The notes: generated by a model not told the origin, from the sequence alone. A stretch of DNA of 64,000 nucleotides from an uncultured archaeon (GCA_964391265.1 CAYMLT010000001.1:905-64904), one strand, 5' to 3'. Positions 31,705 through 44,046 are shown, numbered from the stretch's first letter. Numbers and translations are program-made.

Positions 31705-31717
31705 AAAGCATAATTGG

Positions 31718-31792
31718 TGCTCCGGCCGGGATTCGGACCCGGGTCGGGGAATCGAGAACCCCCCATGCTTGGCCGGACTACACTACCGGAGC
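31718..31792 (-). tRNA. tRNA-Glu (anticodon CUC), with CCA encoded at 31715-31717
   Basis: Cloverleaf by hand: acceptor GCUCCGG/CCGGAGC, T-arm CCGGG-UCCGAAU-CCCGG, anticodon loop UUCUCGA. Confidence 0.75.
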
Positions 31793-35631: not shown

Positions 35632-38271
35632 TTGCGACCATATCTAGCTGTCATAATATCATTTGCAGCACTAGTGACTTTCTGTTTTGTTGTTCCAGTG
35701 TCGGCTTTGTATCTCGACTTTGAGTATTTTGAAACTGACCAAATGACGTATGAAGTAGGTGAAACAATCAATATGGTCACAAAAATGACTGCAAATTACG
35801 ATGAAGGTGGCTGGTGTTATGCATCATTTGCAGTAGTTACCGATCAGGGACCTGTTTTTGATGACAGCTACTATGTTGATTCATCGCCAGATGTCCGGTA
35901 TCTCACTTCATCTTACACTGTCATGCCTCAAGATACATCTCCATTTCCTGACCCCATAGTTGCATATGTAATCTTTAATGTCGAAATCTTTGACAAGTAT
36001 TCGCAAGGAGTGAGTGAAAATGTCGAAGTCAATATAACAAGAGGCATTATTCAGGTTCGCCCACTTTCTTCGCTGTCAATTGAAGCAAATAGCAATGCTT
36101 CCATTTCTCTAAGTATGGCAAGTCGCTACAATGAAAGTGTCCCATACGCGAATCAGGCTGTTTCAGTGGAAATCTATGATTTCAGTTCTTCACTTGTATT
36201 TGAAAATGTGACAAACACCGATATGTATGGTCATATCCTTCTTGAATGGGATTCTCTTCCCTTTCCTCTAGGAACCTATTCAATCCAAGTTGGCGGAAAT
36301 GACACCTCCTCATTCCATTCTTTTTCCGATTCACTGATTATGACTGTGGAACCTGAGAATTCAAGTATTAATATTGTTGCCGCCACTGAAGACATGTATT
36401 GTCAAACACCAAGTGGGATGGGCTTTGAATCAGCTAACATTGTTATTGAGCATGTAGATAAGAATGAAAATCCAATCGAGGGATCAATTATTTCATGGGA
36501 AACCGATTTTGCTAATGGCACCTTTAATTCTCAAGGTAATGGAATATACAATACAAACATATCATTCGTAACATCACCCGGTACATATATCGTAAACATC
36601 AGCGCCTTCAATTCTCAATATCAAAATGCAACCAACTATGTTTCAATAGATGTTTTCCCTCGAAATCTTCTAATCACAATAACAAATCAACAAGTCCTTA
36701 CTACGTCTGATGTAGAAATCGCAGTCGCGTTAAAAGACTGGCAGTCTGTAGAACAAATAGAATCACTTCCTGTTGAAATGAGTCTGGTTCTGGGGTCCTG
36801 GAATTATAGTGTAATAGAACTGTCTAACTCTTCAGGGATAGCATTATTCACAGTGAGTATTCCAAGTTCCAAATGGGGTACTGCAGAGATAACTGTAAAT
36901 GTGACTGCATCGCTCTATTATAACGAAGTACATACAACAACAAACATTGATGTTCTCTATGTGCCCCATATAACTAGCGAAATTATATTATCACCCATTC
37001 GAAACGAATTCGCACTTGCAAACCTAACAATTTTGGATCCATTAGGCTTTCCTTCTATTGGTCTAGAGATTTACCTCTTGGATTCCCAAGGCACTTCGAT
37101 AGAATCTGGATCTACCGACTCGCATGGAATAGTTAGCCTAAGATGGTTGATACCGTTTGATGCTCCACTAGGACCTTACAACTACACTATTCTTATTGAA
37201 ACAAACTCTCAATTTGTCCAAGCTATTTCGACTCCCTTGCAAACTGTAATTCATTACCCTCTATGGGTATCATCCACAAATACAACCTGGAATTTTGTTC
37301 GAGGGAGTAATACGGAAGTAGGAATTCTTTTGAAATCAGAAGACGGATTAATGCAATCTATTCCCCTTCTCCTGAATGATAGTCTGGGAGAATTTATGGA
37401 ATACATAATGATACCACTAGGAGTCTTGACAAATATTTCAATCAACATTGGTCCTACCGTGACAATTGGATTTCGGTCAATTGAAATCCTGATTCTGGAT
37501 TCAAATTTTGCACTAATGGGCAATCAATCAATTGACTCATCTATTCTTACAACAATTATATCGACAATCGACAATATTACTGTATTTCAAGGCGAAAATC
37601 TGGAATTTGATTTATTCACTTTAGATGACGCTATGCAAGAAGTGGAAGTCATAAATGTGAATATTTACCAGGGGGGGAATGAAACTCCATTTGCAAATCT
37701 GGTGAATGTGAATACGAACATACGCCAGATAATCCCCCTTCCCCAATGGATTTCTCCCGGGTCCCAACAGATTATAGTTGAAACATTCGGGAATTATTCG
37801 ATTCATGACTACAAGTGCTTGCTAATTGTGGTATGGATTCGAACAACGATTACAATTTCTATTGTTACAAAATATGGAGGAGCCATGATTCCGCAATCTG
37901 AAACTATGCCATACACTCCTTTCCATCAAGAAACTGCAGCAATAATCTCTTCAGGCGTAATAAGCAACCCGCCTCCAATCTTGTTTAATGGAACTACTAC
38001 AGAAGACTCCACAACCCGTGAAATTTCCCCTACCAGTTGTCCAAGGTTTAATTCAGGAACAAGTAACTTCTCAACTGTTTTCGAGAATGCTTTCAACTCA
38101 GTATCCGGAAATGGCCAAAGGGTTCGCAGTCTGATAGATTTAAAGGATGATTTACTTTCAATCATTGCCTCATCAACGGATCTTGAAGTGCTGCCAAATG
38201 AAACCACCCCCCATTCCGCCTTTTCCGGACCCGAAACAACAACATCTGAAATGAGATTCCTCTTTGTTTGA
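35632..38271 (+). CDS. Large secreted surface glycoprotein; the ORF runs 345 bp into the convergent korA gene
   Basis: Signal peptide, many N-x-S/T sequons and a candidate TM anchor near residue 730 (about 37.8 kb). The roughly 130 aa beyond the anchor overlap korA antisense and may be read-through. Confidence 0.45.
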   Translation: MRPYLAVIISFAALVTFCFVVPVSALYLDFEYFETDQMTYEVGETINMVTKMTANYDEGGWCYASFAVVTDQGPVFDDSYYVDSSPDVRYLTSSYTVMPQDTSPFPDPIVAYVIFNVEIFDKYSQGVSENVEVNITRGIIQVRPLSSLSIEANSNASISLSMASRYNESVPYANQAVSVEIYDFSSSLVFENVTNTDMYGHILLEWDSLPFPLGTYSIQVGGNDTSSFHSFSDSLIMTVEPENSSINIVAATEDMYCQTPSGMGFESANIVIEHVDKNENPIEGSIISWETDFANGTFNSQGNGIYNTNISFVTSPGTYIVNISAFNSQYQNATNYVSIDVFPRNLLITITNQQVLTTSDVEIAVALKDWQSVEQIESLPVEMSLVLGSWNYSVIELSNSSGIALFTVSIPSSKWGTAEITVNVTASLYYNEVHTTTNIDVLYVPHITSEIILSPIRNEFALANLTILDPLGFPSIGLEIYLLDSQGTSIESGSTDSHGIVSLRWLIPFDAPLGPYNYTILIETNSQFVQAISTPLQTVIHYPLWVSSTNTTWNFVRGSNTEVGILLKSEDGLMQSIPLLLNDSLGEFMEYIMIPLGVLTNISINIGPTVTIGFRSIEILILDSNFALMGNQSIDSSILTTIISTIDNITVFQGENLEFDLFTLDDAMQEVEVINVNIYQGGNETPFANLVNVNTNIRQIIPLPQWISPGSQQIIVETFGNYSIHDYKCLLIVVWIRTTITISIVTKYGGAMIPQSETMPYTPFHQETAAIISSGVISNPPPILFNGTTTEDSTTREISPTSCPRFNSGTSNFSTVFENAFNSVSGNGQRVRSLIDLKDDLLSIIASSTDLEVLPNETTPHSAFSGPETTTSEMRFLFV

Positions 38272-39047
38272 ATCTTCTGTTTCAACCTACGGACTAGATT
38301 ATCATGAGTCATGGCATCTGAAGTTTTTCTGAAGCCTCTATTATCATGTGTAGAACCTGTCACCAATAAGTTGTGACCATCTCCAAATCTTGGCATCAAA
38401 GCATGACCATCAGCTGATTCACCACCATAATGTGGGTCTGTTAATGAAATCAGTTTTCTTTGGACTATTGGGTCCGTGATATCGCTCACAGTAACTTTTT
38501 CACGTGAATGTGCTACTATCTCATCAGATAGAAGTATTACAGGATGTCTAAGCATTTCCGAAAGGGCGAATGCCTTGATAGTTAACTCGTATGATTCTTG
38601 TGCTGAGTTAGGTGCAAGAACAATGCTTTCATGGTCGCCATGTGTTCCCCACCGCGCCTGCATGACATCCCCCTGTGCTACTTTTGTGGCTTGACCAGTG
38701 CTTGGTCCAGAACGTTGAACATCAACTATGACACAAGGAGTTTCAGTCATTGTCGCATATCCAATGTTTTCTTGCATTAGACTGAAACCAGGTCCTGATG
38801 TGGCAGTCATCGAAAGAAGGCCTCCCCAAGATGCACCAATTACCGCTGAAATAGCAGCAATTTCATCTTCCATTTGCAGGTAAGTTCCATTTATTCTGGG
38901 AAGACGGTGTGACATGACTTCGGCGATTTCTGATGCAGGTGTTATTGGATATCCCGCAAAAAATCTACAACCCGCAGCAAGAGCTCCTTCGGCACAAGCT
39001 TGGTTGCCTTGCCAAAAATGAACTTTAGAATCTTGAGAAGACATCAT
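37926..39047 (-). CDS. korA: 2-oxoacid:ferredoxin oxidoreductase alpha subunit (KorA/PorA-like), no adjacent beta subunit
   Basis: GNQACAEGALAAGCRFFAGYPITPASEI N-terminus; 373 aa. No korB/TPP-binding ORF lies on either side. Confidence 0.75.
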   Translation of the reverse strand: MMSSQDSKVHFWQGNQACAEGALAAGCRFFAGYPITPASEIAEVMSHRLPRINGTYLQMEDEIAAISAVIGASWGGLLSMTATSGPGFSLMQENIGYATMTETPCVIVDVQRSGPSTGQATKVAQGDVMQARWGTHGDHESIVLAPNSAQESYELTIKAFALSEMLRHPVILLSDEIVAHSREKVTVSDITDPIVQRKLISLTDPHYGGESADGHALMPRFGDGHNLLVTGSTHDNRGFRKTSDAMTHDNLVRRLKQKIQTKRNLISDVVVSGPEKAEWGVVSFGSTSRSVDEAMIESKSSFKSIRLRTLWPFPDTELKAFSKTVEKLLVPELNLGQLVGEISRVVESSVVVPLNKIGGGLLITPEEIIAAVS

Positions 39048-39168
39048 AAGAAACTCAATCCGTTACCAAATTGCCCCTCAGATAAAATTTGAGATTTGAC
39101 CTCGAAACATGAATATTATCAAAACAATACGATATTCTTTTATCGTAATACAAAACTGAACCTTTTCA

Positions 39169-39200
39169 GCGGCCATTGTCTAGTTTGGTTAGGACGGAAT
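39169..39200 (+). other. tRNA-like 5' fragment (acceptor strand GCGGCCA plus a complete D-arm)
   Basis: GCGGCCAUUGUCUAGUUUGGUUAGGAC closely resembles the 5' thirds of the tRNA-Gly and tRNA-Pro in this window. No complete tRNA follows. Confidence 0.35.
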
Positions 39201-39256
39201 TACTTCTTCTCCGGTCGGGTCTATTGACTTCATGGAAGAACCTTACAAGAGTTCTG

Positions 39257-40693
39257 TTAGTTTCTAGATCTCAACCGTTTCCGTAAATCAAGAGTTTTCC
39301 GCAACTTCATCAAGAACTCAGTTTTACCTCCTCTCACCTTCCACCCTTCAATTTCTTGAGAAAGTTCGTAGATTTGGTCAAGGACCTGTAATCTCATGGT
39401 TGGACTCACGGACTCAACAAAAACTTCATGCTCCATGAGGTCATTCTTGATTAGAAGTAACTCAATGAGATAGATTCTCCAACTATCTGTTTCTTCAGAC
39501 AATTTCTCCAGTTCTTTCTGAAGATCTTCCAACTGCCTGAACCCTTCCTTTACCTCCCCTCTAGCAATGACCTGTTGAACAGCCTTTTTCCTTGCAGAGT
39601 ATTCGAACTCGTTGGACCAGAGGGGTTTATTCGTTTCTTCGTCTAATTCTATGTATTGCAGACCGGTTTGGATTTGCACCTTACTCACCAGTTCAGGCTT
39701 GAATCCCTTAGCCTCCAGTAGTTCTCGGATATCCTCCGAGAGTTTCTCACAATCTCTGATCTTTTCTTCTGGTATGTGATAGGCAATACTCTCCAAGATT
39801 AGGTTTTGGTTGTGTTCCAGACTTGCTTGTGCATACAACGGAACTGTGAAGGTTTTTCCTTGGTACAATTGGTTTGAGGCATCAGAACTAGCTGACCACA
39901 CTACATGGTCAAAGGCCCACGTAACACTGACCTGCCACAGTTCCTTCCGCTCTGGAGGTCTTATTCCAGTTCGTTCTTGTTCCTCCAGTATCTTAGGTAC
40001 TAGTTTGCGATATGTTTCCACAATGGAATAACTCTCTCTGAACTCTTTCGGCAGGGTTGATATATCTGGTGTATTGAACTCGTGAATAATCCAATCTGAA
40101 CCTCTTTTGTATACCAAAGCACCAGTCTTGAGGAGGGTGGTAAGGGCGTGCCCTTTCATCATTACAGAGTCAAGTCGTATGACATCCTCAGAGAGGTCAT
40201 CGTACTCAGGGATTACCCTCCAACACGCACCATGACCCTTGGTCGTTTCGAAATATAGGCTATCGGGTTGCCCCGGAGGTCCTTCTAAGTCTTGGAGGTA
40301 TCCATCCCTTCTGCTCTCATCCTTGAACGTCTTGTCCTTGGATAGTGTACTCTTAGTACATACTCCCTTTTCATGGGTGATTCGTAACTCAAGACCAGGC
40401 CATCTACGAGCTTGCACCAGTCCCTTCGCCGTAGGAGGAAGATTCAACTTGGTTGTAGGGAAAGGATTTCTTCTCTCCACCCAGGGCCTAAGAAGAGCCG
40501 TATCATCATCATAAGTGATAGATTTGTCACTGAATCTATCAAAGACCAATCTTTCCTTTTCCACTATCACAGGTTCGCATTCAAGACTGGGGCGTCGTAA
40601 AATCTCGATGATATCACTTGTACGCTTCACGACTAATTTCCCAATCACAGATCCATTATCATCAGGTTCTAAGAACTCTAGGTTATACATCAT
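39257..40693 (-). CDS. Hypothetical protein (478 aa) with a C-terminal coiled coil
   Basis: Long ORF; no motif recognised. Confidence 0.35.
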   Translation of the reverse strand: MMYNLEFLEPDDNGSVIGKLVVKRTSDIIEILRRPSLECEPVIVEKERLVFDRFSDKSITYDDDTALLRPWVERRNPFPTTKLNLPPTAKGLVQARRWPGLELRITHEKGVCTKSTLSKDKTFKDESRRDGYLQDLEGPPGQPDSLYFETTKGHGACWRVIPEYDDLSEDVIRLDSVMMKGHALTTLLKTGALVYKRGSDWIIHEFNTPDISTLPKEFRESYSIVETYRKLVPKILEEQERTGIRPPERKELWQVSVTWAFDHVVWSASSDASNQLYQGKTFTVPLYAQASLEHNQNLILESIAYHIPEEKIRDCEKLSEDIRELLEAKGFKPELVSKVQIQTGLQYIELDEETNKPLWSNEFEYSARKKAVQQVIARGEVKEGFRQLEDLQKELEKLSEETDSWRIYLIELLLIKNDLMEHEVFVESVSPTMRLQVLDQIYELSQEIEGWKVRGGKTEFLMKLRKTLDLRKRLRSRN

Positions 40694-40861
40694 TGACTCC
40701 TTATCCAGGGATACACTACATCGTGCTGTCTTGGTCTTCCCATAGGCTCTGGCAATAATCCTAAGCCCATATTTGATATCCTGCCCTAAGCTTCTTGAAA
40801 CATCTCTGACTTGTGATGCATTGATGCCCTGTAGTGATGGGTCGTTACGTAGTGTGTAACT

Positions 40862-41965
40862 CTAAAGCAAAGTTACATCTTCCTTAGCACGAATCCAGTA
40901 ATCGAACCGTCCAATTGGAATCCACCCACCATACCCCAGGTCGCTAATCCAGAGACCTCTGACACCTTGATATGTAGCGACCATAATTGGAACTCCTTTT
41001 GATACGTCTGCCTTTTCAGCCATGACTCTGAGTTTTGTCATATCGGTTTCACCCCAATAGGGACGGTCCCTGAGGATGTCCTGTAAGAGGGGAAAGATGT
41101 TCCATGTTGAAGAGAACGGGAGTTGGAGCAAATTAACGTTCATCTCAGAACTCCCAATTCTGGATTGGAATACTAACCAGATGGCTGATGGATGCCTCTC
41201 TTTCTTTTCTTTCACTGGGATTATCCGACCAAAGAGGACATCAGACGGACCATTCTTCTGGATGACTTCTCCAAGATTTCTGACCTTTCTTGATAATGTG
41301 TCTAGAAGCCTTCCTCTATTCAAAACGGATTTGCCAGTCTTGTGCTGTGCATGATAGAGTGGTGAAAAACCCAACGTCATCAATTGCCAAGGTAGAATGA
41401 ACTTCCAGAGTCTCTCAAGAAGACCGGTTGAGGGTTGTGAGATGTTGTTTTGTTCGAGTGCTGCAAGTAGTAAGAAGAAGAACTGATTACCTGTTAGCAA
41501 TAGGATTCCTGGGTACCTAAGAGAGAGTTTATACATTGCATCAGATGATTGTGGGGTCAGACCTTGGGGCGTCTTTAGTCTGAGAGGTCTGAGTGCTTTC
41601 CAGATTAGTTTTGTCTTTGAATAGTTCTCCAAAAGCTGAGAAACATCCCTCAAGACATGAAAGAGTTCGCGTCCCTTTTTCTTCCTGATTTTCTTAGGAT
41701 CTAGGATGACAGAGAGCTGATTCAAGAGTCCCTTCCATCGGTTGCTTTCACGGGACCTTAGAAGTCTGGTTGCTGCTCTCAAGCCATTCAGTTCCTTGCG
41801 AACCATGTCTGCAAGAAAGATAGACACATCGGTGCCCTGTGGAGTAAGGTCCGTCTTCTTGACCATGAAATCGCTCGTATTGTCGCTGCAAAGACTGTCT
41901 GGTTCTGTGAACAACATCAAGTACAGAAAATCTTCTTCGAGGACCTCAGGAGCTTTCAGGCTCAT
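40862..41965 (-). CDS. Hypothetical protein (367 aa)
   Basis: Long ORF. Its first roughly 40 codons are antisense to the TnpB remnant, so the real start is probably an internal Met. Confidence 0.3.
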   Translation of the reverse strand: MSLKAPEVLEEDFLYLMLFTEPDSLCSDNTSDFMVKKTDLTPQGTDVSIFLADMVRKELNGLRAATRLLRSRESNRWKGLLNQLSVILDPKKIRKKKGRELFHVLRDVSQLLENYSKTKLIWKALRPLRLKTPQGLTPQSSDAMYKLSLRYPGILLLTGNQFFFLLLAALEQNNISQPSTGLLERLWKFILPWQLMTLGFSPLYHAQHKTGKSVLNRGRLLDTLSRKVRNLGEVIQKNGPSDVLFGRIIPVKEKKERHPSAIWLVFQSRIGSSEMNVNLLQLPFSSTWNIFPLLQDILRDRPYWGETDMTKLRVMAEKADVSKGVPIMVATYQGVRGLWISDLGYGGWIPIGRFDYWIRAKEDVTLL

Positions 41966-42292
41966 GCAGGGTCGAAAGACCTATCGTACAATCTGAGTTC
42001 AAACCTCTGGGGAAAAGTCATCGACACGGTCAGATACATGCGAGAGTCCCTTGGACATAACAAATACTCAGTCTGGACAGTGAATCCCCAGTATATCTCT
42101 CAGACCTGTCATGTGTGTGGGGAGAGAGGGAAGCGAGTAGAAGATGAAACCTCCACCACTGAGAGAAAAGGTGGAGAGTACTTCTACTGTGTAAGGTGCG
42201 ATGAGCATTTCCATGCCGATGTGAATGCGGCTCGAAACATTATTCATGTACAAGATAACCTATCCAGTGTCGCTCCTGGACGTGCAGCTTGA
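41849..42292 (+). pseudogene. tnpB: TnpB (IS200/IS605 OrfB) C-terminal remnant: RuvC-II/III plus zinc finger
   Basis: Stop-free frame IFFEDL...VNPQYISQTCHVCG...YCVRCDEHFHADVNAARNI. The N-terminal roughly 250 aa are absent or scrambled upstream. Confidence 0.7.
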
Positions 42293-42414
42293 TATTCAAG
42301 TTTGTACAACTTACAATGAACGACAGGACGGAAGCTTCCCGCTAACCTGCCAAAAGACCAATCATATTAGCAATAATCTTAAATCACAGCCCAAACCTGA
42401 ATGTTTCCAGAATT

Positions 42415-42486
42415 GCGATCGTTGTCTAGTGGTTATGATGTAGGCTTCCCAAGCCTATGACCCGGGTTCGAGTCCCGGCGATCGCA
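42415..42486 (+). tRNA. tRNA-Gly (anticodon CCC), with CCA encoded at 42487-42489
   Basis: Acceptor GCGAUCG/CGAUCGC, anticodon loop UUCCCAA, T-arm CCGGG-UUCGAGU-CCCGG. Confidence 0.85.
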
Positions 42487-42590
42487 CCATTACTTCTAGT
42501 AGAGGGTTGGGCGAACCTAAATTCATGTCCAATATCTGCAATTCTTGAAATCCAAGCTTTCAACCCGTGACGGAATCCAGAGAATGAGTT

Positions 42591-42619
42591 CCGCGGGAGT
42601 TCAAATCCCGGTGGCCGCA
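42591..42619 (+). other. tRNA-like 3' fragment (T-arm plus acceptor 3' strand UGGCCGC plus discriminator A)
   Basis: CGGGA-GUUCAAA-UCCCG hairpin, then UGGCCGC-A-CC. The acceptor strand is exactly complementary to the GCGGCCA fragment at 39169. Confidence 0.35.
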
Positions 42620-42840
42620 CCGACTTCTTGTTTTCAGATGACATATAAGCCCAGGCTTATGACATGTCATGGCGAGCGATGAATGTCATGACCCCGATGA
42701 GTCGATATGACAATGACTTGGATCTTGAGTTAGGAGCTTGCCACTATTACTTTCGGCCACCTCTACCACCAGTGTGCGATTAATAGTACAATTCACACAA
42801 TCCTTTTAAGTTGCCTCTGACTTGATTACTTTGGTTTGGG

Positions 42841-44046
42841 ATGCCAAGAGACTATGTGGAAGACGAACTCAGTCGCAAGAGCGTATTCAAATCAGAACAC
42901 TATTTGTCGATTGATTATGTTCCAGAGAATCTACCCCATAGGGAAGGTGAGCTGAGAACATTAGCCCAAAATTTCAAGACTCTTATCACATCCCCTGGTC
43001 GCACAAGTCAGAAGTTCATAATCGAAGGTCCTGTAGGTACTGGAAAAACCGCTGTAGCAAAACGTTTTGCGGAACAAATGGTCCAAGCTGCTCAACGTCG
43101 TGATATTCGTTTCCACAAGCTGCATATCAATTGCAGAGTGAACAAGAGTGCTTATCTAGTCTATCTCAAGATTCTACGACAATTCAAGCCAAAATTTCCA
43201 CGAAGAGGGCATTCTCCAGAAGAACTTCTGCAAATAATTGTTGAAATATTAGAGGCTGAGGATCGATATCTCCTTCTAATTTTGGATGAGCTTGACTATT
43301 TCATAAAACAGAAAGGGGGAGATATTCTGTACAATCTCACTCGACTCATGGATGACCAGCTCAACGCACAACAAAGACTATCCATGATTGGCGTTGGTCG
43401 CCATATCCCTCTTGATAGTAGTATGTTTGATCCTAGTACACTGAGCACCCTGCAAAGGAATATTATCCGATTCGAGAAATATACTGATTCTGAATTGAAT
43501 GACATACTTGTTGAAAGAAACAAGATGGCATTTGTAGAGGGTGCGGTGATGCCTGAAGCATTGCAGTTAGTATGTGAGATAGCATCCGAACGAGGTGATG
43601 CAAGGTACGCAATAGAATTACTCTGGCGCGCAGGTAAACAGGCAGACAGATTGGAATCTTCTGAAATAATTCCAGATTATGTCAGAAAGGCCAAGGCCGA
43701 CACACACCCCGAAATAAGAAAGGAAGTCCTTGAAAGCTTACCTAAACAGAACCAGCTTCTACTTCTTGCAGCTGCTAGAAAACTGAAGGAAGGCCAAAGT
43801 GCGTATGTAACAATTGGAGAGGTAGAAGAAATGTATCGTTCAGTTTGTGAGGAGTACAATTTCGAATCGCGAGCTCATACTCAGGTTTGGGAATGGGTCC
43901 AAGATTTGAATGCTCATGGGGTAATCGATACAAAACGTTCTGGTGTTGGGCAAAGAGGCCAGACAACCCTGCTGGGTCTTTCTGACATCCCTGCTGACCT
44001 GCTCGAACAGTACCTACTTGGCATACTAGATAAAGGAAGGTTGTAA
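42841..44046 (+). CDS. orc1: Orc1/Cdc6 replication initiator
   Basis: LSIDYVPENLPHREGEL, Walker A GPVGTGKT, Walker B LILDELD, sensor 2 GDARYAIELL, and a C-terminal winged helix. Confidence 0.9.
   Translation: MPRDYVEDELSRKSVFKSEHYLSIDYVPENLPHREGELRTLAQNFKTLITSPGRTSQKFIIEGPVGTGKTAVAKRFAEQMVQAAQRRDIRFHKLHINCRVNKSAYLVYLKILRQFKPKFPRRGHSPEELLQIIVEILEAEDRYLLLILDELDYFIKQKGGDILYNLTRLMDDQLNAQQRLSMIGVGRHIPLDSSMFDPSTLSTLQRNIIRFEKYTDSELNDILVERNKMAFVEGAVMPEALQLVCEIASERGDARYAIELLWRAGKQADRLESSEIIPDYVRKAKADTHPEIRKEVLESLPKQNQLLLLAAARKLKEGQSAYVTIGEVEEMYRSVCEEYNFESRAHTQVWEWVQDLNAHGVIDTKRSGVGQRGQTTLLGLSDIPADLLEQYLLGILDKGRL

Follow-up and report, generated by a model that had tools for sequence, protein, structure and literature searches.

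How do two complementary parts of one tRNA gene come to lie more than 3 kb apart? The question is raised by a 64 kb stretch of a metagenome-assembled genome (MAG) of an uncultured archaeon (GCA_964391265.1 CAYMLT010000001.1:905-64904), here called the window, whose Orc1 homologs place its source lineage in the Thorarchaeota, a group of Asgard archaea. All positions below are window coordinates unless stated otherwise, and L-numbers designate comparison loci. The window has GCGGCCATTGTCTAGTTTGGTTAGGACGGAAT at 39169-39200, which looks like the beginning of a tRNA gene, a sequence ...GAGTTCAAATCCCGGTGGCCGCACC ending at 42621, which looks like the end of one, and the 8-mer GACGGAAT at both 39193 and 42569. 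A sequence-only reading of the window had placed these strings correctly and had proposed either a tRNA pseudogene disrupted by one insertion with an 8-bp target-site duplication (TSD) or a genuinely split or permuted tRNA. From the comparison with orthologous loci we consider it very probable that the locus is a tRNA-Gly(CCC) gene recently disrupted by a composite insert, made up of a remnant of an IS607-family insertion sequence (IS) and of a 16-nt copy of part of the tRNA gene followed by a spacer and a second, intron-less tRNA-Gly(CCC) gene.

The intact gene in relatives and its pieces in the window

The locus is flanked on the left by the gene for the alpha subunit of a 2-oxoacid:acceptor oxidoreductase (37926-39047, minus strand) and on the right by orc1, encoding Orc1/Cdc6 (42841-44046, plus strand), which is followed on the plus strand by the genes for an ArsR-type helix-turn-helix (HTH) protein and TruA. 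Eight Thorarchaeota genomes have the same locus uninterrupted (L001, L002, L003/L004, L006, L038, L041 and L042), the adjacency of the flanking genes being given by gene calls in L041, L042 and L001-L006 and by sequence in L038. Orc1 is 82-92% identical to that of the window in L001, L006, L002 and L003/L004, where the oxidoreductase and orc1 genes are neighbours 420-450 bp apart; over the relatives the spacing between the oxidoreductase alpha gene and orc1 is 420-490 bp, as against about 3.8 kb in the window, which agrees with the roughly 3.4 kb of extra DNA that had been proposed to lie between the tRNA-like sequences. The intergenic regions of L001, L002, L003, L004 and L006 align along their whole length to the two flanks of the window and hold one uninterrupted tRNA-Gly(CCC) gene, which in the close relatives reads GCGGCCA-TT-GTCT-AGTTTGGTTA-GGAC-G-GAAGC-TTCCCAA-GCTTT-CAAC-CCGGG-[27-30 nt]-TTCAAAT-CCCGG-TGGCCGC-A-CCA. 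These intact orthologs bear out the claim that the window's two tRNA-like sequences, with their complementary acceptor strands, are pieces of one gene, and the uninterrupted tRNA that they reveal at the orthologous loci is the opposite of unrelated sequence at the two sites.

As they stand the intact genes of the close relatives are missed by ARAGORN, which calls each of them tRNA-Gly(ccc) once the block of 27-30 nt is removed. The orthologous gene carries a block of 19 or 25 nt in L041 and L042 (Orc1 79% and 78% identical), and the block is absent altogether from L038 (Orc1 82%; gene at 2713-2786). The Rfam tRNA model (RF00005, gathering score 29) gives the unspliced orthologs 39.7-42.1 bits and the intron-less L038 gene 67.1 bits. 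Rebuilt from its gene positions 1-22, the 16-nt copy and the 3' piece, the window gene, hereafter the host gene, is a perfect tRNA-Gly(ccc) by ARAGORN. As they lie in the window, the host pieces give no tRNA match in a permissive Rfam scan of 38900-42900, the sole match of which is the second tRNA-Gly(CCC) at 42415-42489 (64.6 bits), and ARAGORN calls only this gene and a tRNA-Glu(CTC) at 31715-31792 in the whole window.

The host gene is not contiguous in the window but lies in three pieces, with positions 1-31 at 39169-39199, 23-38 at 42325-42340 and 37-106 at 42552-42621, and with 3,125 bp and 211 bp of other DNA between them. The 5' piece (39169-39199, plus strand) comprises the acceptor 5' strand, the D-arm, G26 and G27-A29 and is identical at 31/31 positions to the intact genes of L001, L002 and L006; this identity ends at 39199. 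From 42552 there is again identity to the orthologs (16/16), in an exon continuation from C35 to G53 (42552-42569, plus strand) that contains the 3' part of the anticodon loop, the 3' strand of the anticodon stem, the variable loop and the T-stem strand CCGTG, and whose single difference is at the variable position 52. Exon 2 (42600-42621, plus strand), with the T-loop, the 3' strands of the T-stem and acceptor stem, the discriminator A and CC, is identical to the orthologs and ends in ...TTCAAATCCCGGTGGCCGCACC, the end of the same gene as the 5' piece. A reading of T52 in the window's T-stem as a sign of decay was rejected, since position 52 is A in the intact L041 and L042. The mature T-stem of these two genes would have an A52-C62 mismatch.

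By ortholog alignment the true junctions are 39199/39200 (...GGACGGAA, tRNA A29) and 42551/42552 (CCAAGCTTTCAACCCG..., tRNA C35), the latter 17 nt earlier than the start of the 3' piece in the sequence-only reading. The inserted DNA, 39200-42551, amounts to 3,352 bp and sits in the anticodon stem and loop; at its outer junctions the five host bases GCTTC are absent and nothing is duplicated. The 8-mer GACGGAAT, said to lie at both junctions, has only two plus-strand copies in the window, of which the left one (39193-39200) is made of tRNA positions 23-29 plus the first inserted base, and the right one (42569-42576) of exon base G53 plus bases 1-7 of an intron in the T-arm, an exon/intron boundary 17 nt inside the host 3' piece. 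Shuffling gives P ~0.015 for an 8-mer common to the 5' piece and the 82-nt 3' region, a mildly unusual value, though by its position the match is irrelevant. Likewise the supposed T-arm hairpin CGGGA/GTTCAAA/TCCCG is composed of the intron 3' end and the T-stem, the true T-stem 5' strand being at 42565-42569, and the 77-mer formed by joining the pieces in that register is not called by ARAGORN at default settings and is at relaxed settings a poor 'tRNA-Ser(aga)' with a broken T-arm. With the anticodon arm missing, this joined 77-mer was never a molecule. The start of the T-arm intron does resemble the segment from D-stem to anticodon stem, with GACGGAAT in both places in the window (39191-39200 and 42567-42577) and AGGACGGAAGC as against GGGATGGAAAC in L001 (1616-1626 and 1645-1655), a resemblance which may be due to chance at the level just given or may be a trace of the origin of the intron.

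The exon pieces are 68/69 identical to L001/L006, whereas the adjoining non-coding DNA and the intron are 55-66% identical, and it is this nearly undecayed state of the pieces that makes the disruption recent. About 25 nt 5' of the host tRNA start there is furthermore a promoter-like block, CGATAkTCTTTTATC (39130-39145, plus strand), which is present at all orthologous loci including L036, L037, L041 and L042, and which would act as the promoter of the host gene.

The 30-nt block in the T-arm of the window gene (42570-42599, plus strand), which includes most of the right-hand GACGGAAT, is placed between positions 53 and 54 by the exon junction CCGGG/TTCAAAT of L038, where the insert is lacking. 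Its length varies from 19 to 30 nt, and within the Thorarchaeota it is present or absent in one gene at one locus. Of the seven lineages compared, the window among them, six have all 4/4 pairs in a central helix between CCCG of the exon and CGGG of the intron, and L042 has 3/4. The helix is accompanied by bulges of 3 nt on each strand (NG-A/T and AA-T, or AG-T in the window, the hyphen marking the cut), and on either strand the cut falls 2 nt 3' of it. The remainder of the intron forms a covarying hairpin of 4-9 bp, the sequence of which is wholly different from lineage to lineage in all seven. No outer helix could be drawn by eye on the side of exon 2, which leaves a relaxed bulge-helix-bulge (BHB) motif, and the spliced sequences fold as tRNA in ARAGORN. 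On this pattern of pairing the block is predicted to be a non-canonical archaeal BHB intron of relaxed symmetric geometry. Introns of this sort are handled by an (alpha-beta)2 EndA with an L1 loop, which the Asgard archaea possess (PMC5829648), and other Asgard lineages are rich in non-canonical tRNA introns (PMC11291895); no description of the Thorarchaeota intron at 53/54 of tRNA-Gly(CCC) was found in the literature searched. The intron accounts both for the failure of ARAGORN to call this conserved tRNA and for the inability of the sequence-only reading to fold the joined pieces.

Two further observations concern the surroundings. The tRNA-Glu(CTC) gene (31715-31792, minus strand), some 7 kb upstream, keeps its position in at least one relative (L002, 2246-2323, minus strand); the otherwise syntenic L003 has no ARAGORN call for it at the corresponding position, and the copy in L003 may therefore also carry an intron that hides it from tRNA finders. 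In the interval between the tRNA and orc1 the locus of every lineage has a strongly conserved non-coding block, GGCGAGCGATGAATGTCATGACCCCGATGAGTC...GGATCTTGAGTTAGGAGCTCGCC (42674-42760 in the window), which is probably an origin-recognition-box and oriC sequence, so that the disrupted tRNA would lie about 50 nt from a likely replication origin.

The composite insert

The insert consists of a block 1 of 3,125 bp (39200-42324) and a block 2 of 211 bp (42341-42551), between which lies the 16-nt copy of the host gene. Block 1 is a decayed IS607-family remnant, absent from all orthologous loci aligned, that has no left end and retains a tail of tnpA, a fragment of an orphan gene here called X, the C-terminal part of tnpB and an exact right end. 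What is left of tnpA is the last ~9 codons and the stop (..NYFFSGRVY; 39200-39227, plus strand), comparable to the tails in L009 (HIASFSGRVYGF..) and in the IS607 transposase of L012 (LIASFSGRVYGL..), and since only this tail is kept, the left junction is a breakpoint inside tnpA and not a transposon end. The tnpB remnant comprises the C-terminal 167 codons (41789-42292, plus strand; Pfam Cas12f1-like_TNB, 1.5e-12), twice the extent first ascribed to it, and is 80% identical to the L007 TnpB and 77% identical to residues 507-681 of the L009 TnpB of 681 amino acids (aa), the TnpB copies of the family reaching ~680 aa.

The right end of the element (42240-42324, plus strand) has an omega-RNA-like structure and contains the invariant motif CAAGTTTGTACAACTTACAATGAACG at 42297-42322. 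The conserved end motif CAAGTYTGTNNANYTTACAATGRACG occurs once in the window and was found at 25 loci, all of them in Thorarchaeota MAGs and often several per genome. A scan of viral contigs for the element end gave no match. Homology between copies always stops at most 2 nt from ...AACG(GT/AC/AT/GC), a terminus common to 27 family copies, and it is this family-wide terminus that sets the right end of the window element at 42324. The two helices of the right end have compensatory changes in 4/10 pairs and would fit an omega-RNA scaffold, in which case the guide would be the adjacent 16-nt tRNA segment. A complete element is found in L012, with tnpA (201 aa; NCBIfam IS607 family transposase NF033518 at 160.5 bits, cutoff 110; Pfam Resolvase at 2.2e-21 and a MerR-type HTH), an antisense X-like gene, tnpB and the right end. 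There are furthermore miniature copies of ~215 nt with sharp ends, GGGTTG..AACAGCTAC ... AACGGT, and without duplications; these were seen in L011, L015, L016, L020, L024, L026 and L034 (for example L015 5211-5431, minus strand, locus coordinates), are multicopy in several MAGs, and include two from one genome that are 99.5% identical.

The family left ends begin with GGG, most right ends read ..AACGGT, and the right end in the window adjoins the tRNA at A-GG-ACGG. IS607 elements are described as having no inverted repeats, no TSD and a GG target (PMC6188088). Block 1 is nevertheless bracketed by a 9-bp direct duplication, AGGACGGAA, with its left copy at 39191-39199 (plus strand) and its right copy at 42325-42333, within the 16-nt segment, both copies being gene positions 23-31; the duplication encloses the IS part only (39200-42324) and not the whole insert. 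Because IS607 makes no TSD and the miniature copies show none, it is not a normal product of IS607 transposition. The possibility that the element generally makes a 9-bp TSD was considered and rejected, as L007 has 7/9 matches in the same register but inside the conserved 3' end of tnpA; no 9-bp duplication was found in L009 or in the miniature copies. Two other repeats were discarded as well, namely the 9-mer ATTACTTCT, which is found at the left junction and again directly 3' of the second tRNA and is attributed to chance, a local alignment of the insert ends being no better than 25% of shuffles, and a 13-nt inverted repeat around the second tRNA, which is at the same level as many chance pairs in its list.

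Orphan gene X is represented in block 1 by a C-terminal fragment of at least 845 aa (39257-41965, minus strand), listed as the open reading frames ORF478 and ORF367 and earlier taken for two hypothetical genes. It is one broken gene, since a tblastn alignment crosses the in-frame stop at 40862-40864 in one frame, and since residues 1-93 of P0122 resemble the C-terminus of ORF367 (75%) and residues 152-694 resemble ORF478 (63%). This TAG is the sole interruption of the ~845-codon X frame and is most simply explained as a nonsense mutation. Residues ~50-274 of ORF367 match the middle of proteins of 1,000-1,880 aa, and an internal deletion is implied by the C-terminal fragment of X abutting the middle of tnpB. 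Homologs of X are head-to-head with tnpB in L007 and L009/L010, and L008 has the same layout on a contig cut within tnpB. The gene is found antisense between tnpA and tnpB in L007 (2669-4807), L009 (2715-4385) and L012 (3350-4339), and giant antisense reading frames occur in L022 and L028. Members of the X family range from 329 aa to >1,800 aa; a profile search retrieved 105 cluster representatives, 25 of them at E<=1e-30, with the X region often C-terminal in proteins of 1,500-1,880 aa and no Pfam domain in any representative. Pfam, NCBIfam and profile searches gave no annotation for gene X, and its predicted structure has a mean pLDDT (predicted local distance difference test) of 47. Damage to tnpA next to an X-tnpB module is seen elsewhere too, L009 having the tnpA tail only and L007 a frameshifted tnpA and an N-terminally truncated tnpB, and it seems that copies of the X-bearing subfamily are as a rule decayed and probably immobile.

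Directly after the element comes the 16-nt segment AGGACGGAAGCTTCCC (42325-42340, plus strand), which corresponds to host gene positions 23-38 (A21-C36), spans the break and holds the 'missing' GCTTC. Its match to the host gene is exact, with a chance expectation of 1.4e-4. Block 2 then contains a spacer with a second promoter-like box (..ATTAGCAATAATCTTAAATCAC..; 42341-42414, plus strand), the intron-less tRNA-Gly(CCC) with the acceptor strand GCGATCG (42415-42489, plus strand; called by ARAGORN and by Rfam RF00005) and a 62-nt segment (42490-42551, plus strand) between this second tRNA and the host 3' piece. A gapped acceptor-stem pattern retrieved two metagenome contigs, L036 and L037, the tRNA-Gly(CCC) of which is identical to the window's second tRNA at 70/75 positions; an exact-match metagenome scan for the anticodon arm of the second tRNA and a scan of viral contigs for the tRNA itself retrieved none. 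Both contigs come from a distant Thorarchaeota lineage, whose Orc1 shows 70-74% identity to that of the window clade, and represent the orthologous locus, with the oxidoreductase, tRNA, orc1, HTH and truA genes. The promoter-like block is followed there by a tRNA 5' half in decay, then by a spacer in which a second TATA-like box lies and by the GCGATCG-type tRNA; neither a 3' half nor an IS is present at the locus. The 5' half in L037 stops right after the anticodon, GCGACCGTGGTCTAGCTTGGCCAGGACGAAAGCTTTCCA being followed directly by CTGACCTG.... Window positions 42325-42414 are homologous to L037 and L036 across this junction of 5' half and spacer (63/95 and 63/96; z 8.5 and 7.7; 0/500 shuffles as good), the promoter-like box being the best-conserved block, and 42490-42551 has no homology to the L036/L037 downstream flanks (z -0.3) or to any other sequence compared. 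The decayed 5' half lies under the conserved promoter and directly 5' of the resident tRNA-Gly(CCC) at ~838-876 in L037 and 5273-5308 in L036 (minus strand; locus coordinates), and is in L037 of the host type at 32/39 positions. A cut by TnpB was considered as the point of capture of the second tRNA, because this begins exactly 16 nt from the end of the element; the idea is weakened by the IS-free junction of 5' half and spacer in L036 and L037.

How the locus may have arisen

Of the two proposals made from the sequence, the one of an insertion-disrupted tRNA pseudogene is upheld by the intact orthologs as far as the disruption goes, and falls as far as a single insertion with an 8-bp TSD is concerned, the insert being composite and ending at 39200 and 42551; the other proposal, a split or permuted tRNA, finds no support. 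The old host gene appears to be dead, as its 5' piece leads directly into the IS, the 3' piece is left without a 5' counterpart and the two have no pairing that would join them, and the intron-less tRNA-Gly(CCC) is likely to be a functional replacement that supplies tRNA-Gly(CCC). Several points weigh against this interpretation. That the second tRNA functions and that the old gene is dead is read from the sequence; the view covers 64 kb of the genome, and further tRNA-Gly(CCC) genes are possible elsewhere; IS607 is normally duplication-free (PMC6188088), and the 9-bp repeat calls either for an extra, unobserved rearrangement or for import in one step; the window comes from a MAG, its junctions being those of the assembly; and the interpretation does not account for the 62 nt at 42490-42551.

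As to the order of events, we tentatively prefer a stepwise history in place, to which we give somewhat less than an even chance. The spacer and second tRNA would have entered the anticodon loop first, which would have made the old gene dispensable; an IS607-family element would then have inserted at A-GG of the leftover 5' half; and an illegitimate exchange with an IS-free copy would finally have brought the 3' end of tnpA up against tRNA position 29, whereby the 9 nt AGGACGGAA would have become duplicated and the left end lost. This route is favoured because the 16-nt segment matches the gene of the window clade at 16/16 positions, as against 14/16 and 12/16 for the remnants in L037 and L036, and the same figures speak against the alternative, less likely in our view though worth serious consideration, that a 3,352-bp fragment of another strain's locus was captured in one step where the anticodon stem of a still intact gene had broken, GCTTC being lost. 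On that account the donor would have had a decayed 5' half with the IS607 remnant, spacer and second tRNA, and the 9-bp 'duplication' would be homology between donor and recipient. Such an import would explain by a single event both illegitimate junctions and the presence of a decayed IS amid nearly undecayed tRNA pieces, and the arrangement of 5' half, spacer and tRNA does exist at this locus in L036 and L037; however, a donor whose remnant carries an IS was not found, and the 62 nt are unlike the L036/L037 flanks. A more speculative notion, which we regard as improbable, is that spacer, promoter and intron-less tRNA-Gly(CCC) form a small site-specific replacement cassette that entered the anticodon loop independently in two Thorarchaeota lineages. 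The window still holds the old 3' half, which L036 and L037 do not, and entry may have been right after the anticodon, at what is essentially the canonical intron site. If true, this would be a new mode of spread, in which a tRNA gene disables its own isoacceptor and takes its place. In a related vein AGGACGGAAGCTTCCC is the would-be guide of the IS remnant, and the 9-bp duplication and tnpA truncation could be scars of aberrant TnpB-guided homing.

The remaining explanations fare worse. That two co-occurring strains, one with an intact-type locus and one with a second-tRNA-type locus carrying the IS, were fused in assembly is very improbable: the source is a MAG, insertion sequences and conserved tRNAs are classic points of misassembly and the locus does mix two types, but the four junctions share only 0-9 nt, too short to mislead an assembler, both flanks are collinear with the relatives, and the products of ORF478 and ORF367 (P0121 and P0126) share a single 72-kb contig in the NCBI records. 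We give still less credence to a genuinely split tRNA, the halves of which would be joined in trans as in Nanoarchaeum equitans and Caldivirga to give a ligated GCGGCCA...UGGCCGCA tRNA-Gly(CCC). The 5' piece does retain the promoter-like block, the break is near the canonical 37/38 site, and L037 keeps a well-preserved 5' half under the promoter. The longest complement between trailer and leader is however 5 nt, and the duplex of the two has an energy of -20.7 (mean of shuffles -28.0), 98% of shuffles pairing more strongly; the 5' piece ends at A29 in the anticodon stem with the rest of the anticodon arm 3.1 kb off behind the IS; and an intact tRNA with the same anticodon lies inside the insert, the close relatives are all contiguous and the L036/L037 locus has no 3' half. 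A BHB was looked for at the junctions and none could be drawn across them, and a giant cis-spliced intron at 37/38 holding the second tRNA was rejected, as no 4-bp helix with bulges was seen by eye across 42340/42552. A single transposon-like insertion of 3.4 kb bounded by an 8-bp TSD, finally, deserves next to no belief. In its favour the 8-mer has just its two plus-strand sites, of which the left one overlaps the true junction by chance of position; against it the right copy is host sequence, related sequence (GGGATGGAAAC) stands there in orthologs that have no insertion, and deletion of 39201-42576 yields no tRNA.

Comparison with known systems

The preferred reading of the locus, a recent disruption by a composite insert, makes it a clean and datable case of tRNA gene turnover, with a second lineage at a later stage of the same replacement, and the search that it occasioned brings to light a multicopy family of IS607/TnpB elements in the Thorarchaeota, which has miniature derivatives and carries a giant orphan gene as an unexplained passenger. 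It also carries two cautions. Standard tRNA finders miss the conserved Thorarchaeota tRNA-Gly(CCC), and such genes can cause apparent gaps in Asgard tRNA sets, as has been anticipated (PMC5829648); and where tRNA-like halves surround an insertion, they are to be compared with orthologous empty sites before the label of a split tRNA is applied.

In the split tRNA genes of Nanoarchaeum equitans and Caldivirga maquilingensis the pieces are likewise separated, with exactly complementary acceptor strands and a break near the anticodon loop. The window differs from these in having neither a complementary leader and trailer nor a BHB, in the mobile element between the pieces, in its contiguous relatives and in a 5' piece that ends in the anticodon stem. 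With tRNA-targeting integrative elements the locus shares foreign DNA in a tRNA gene together with element-borne sequence that keeps the tRNA function available, but instead of a duplicated 3' part it supplies a complete and different tRNA gene that has a promoter-like box of its own, and the displaced remnant in L036 and L037 is the 5' half and not the 3' half. The Pfam and NCBIfam searches revealed no integrase or recombinase domain in the insert, and the part of the tRNA that is repeated belongs to the 5' half.

The T-arm intron agrees with the non-canonical BHB introns of other archaea (Thermoproteales; Atabeyarchaeia, Freyarchaeia) in being short and outside the anticodon loop, in its 4-bp central helix and 3-nt bulges, in its splice sites two bases 3' of the helix on each strand and in its presence/absence polymorphism (PMC5829648, PMC11291895, PMC4090602), whereas the predicted Thorarchaeota intron lacks an evident outer helix on the exon-2 side. 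The mobile element is like other IS607-family elements in that the complete family copy has an IS607 transposase and TnpB, in that the copies have no inverted terminal repeats and the miniature ones no duplications, and in that the tnpB-side terminus is precise and followed by unique flank (PMC6188088, PMC10691335); unlike these, the window copy is without its left end and most of tnpA, has an antisense orphan fragment inside and is associated with a 9-bp duplication. The components are thus all of known kinds, namely an IS607/TnpB element, a non-canonical BHB intron and an IS-disrupted tRNA pseudogene, and what is modestly new is a conserved, origin-adjacent tRNA-Gly(CCC) with an intron at 53/54 in the Thorarchaeota, its replacement by an intron-less gene of the same anticodon at two stages in two lineages, and a giant antisense orphan passenger in the IS607 family.

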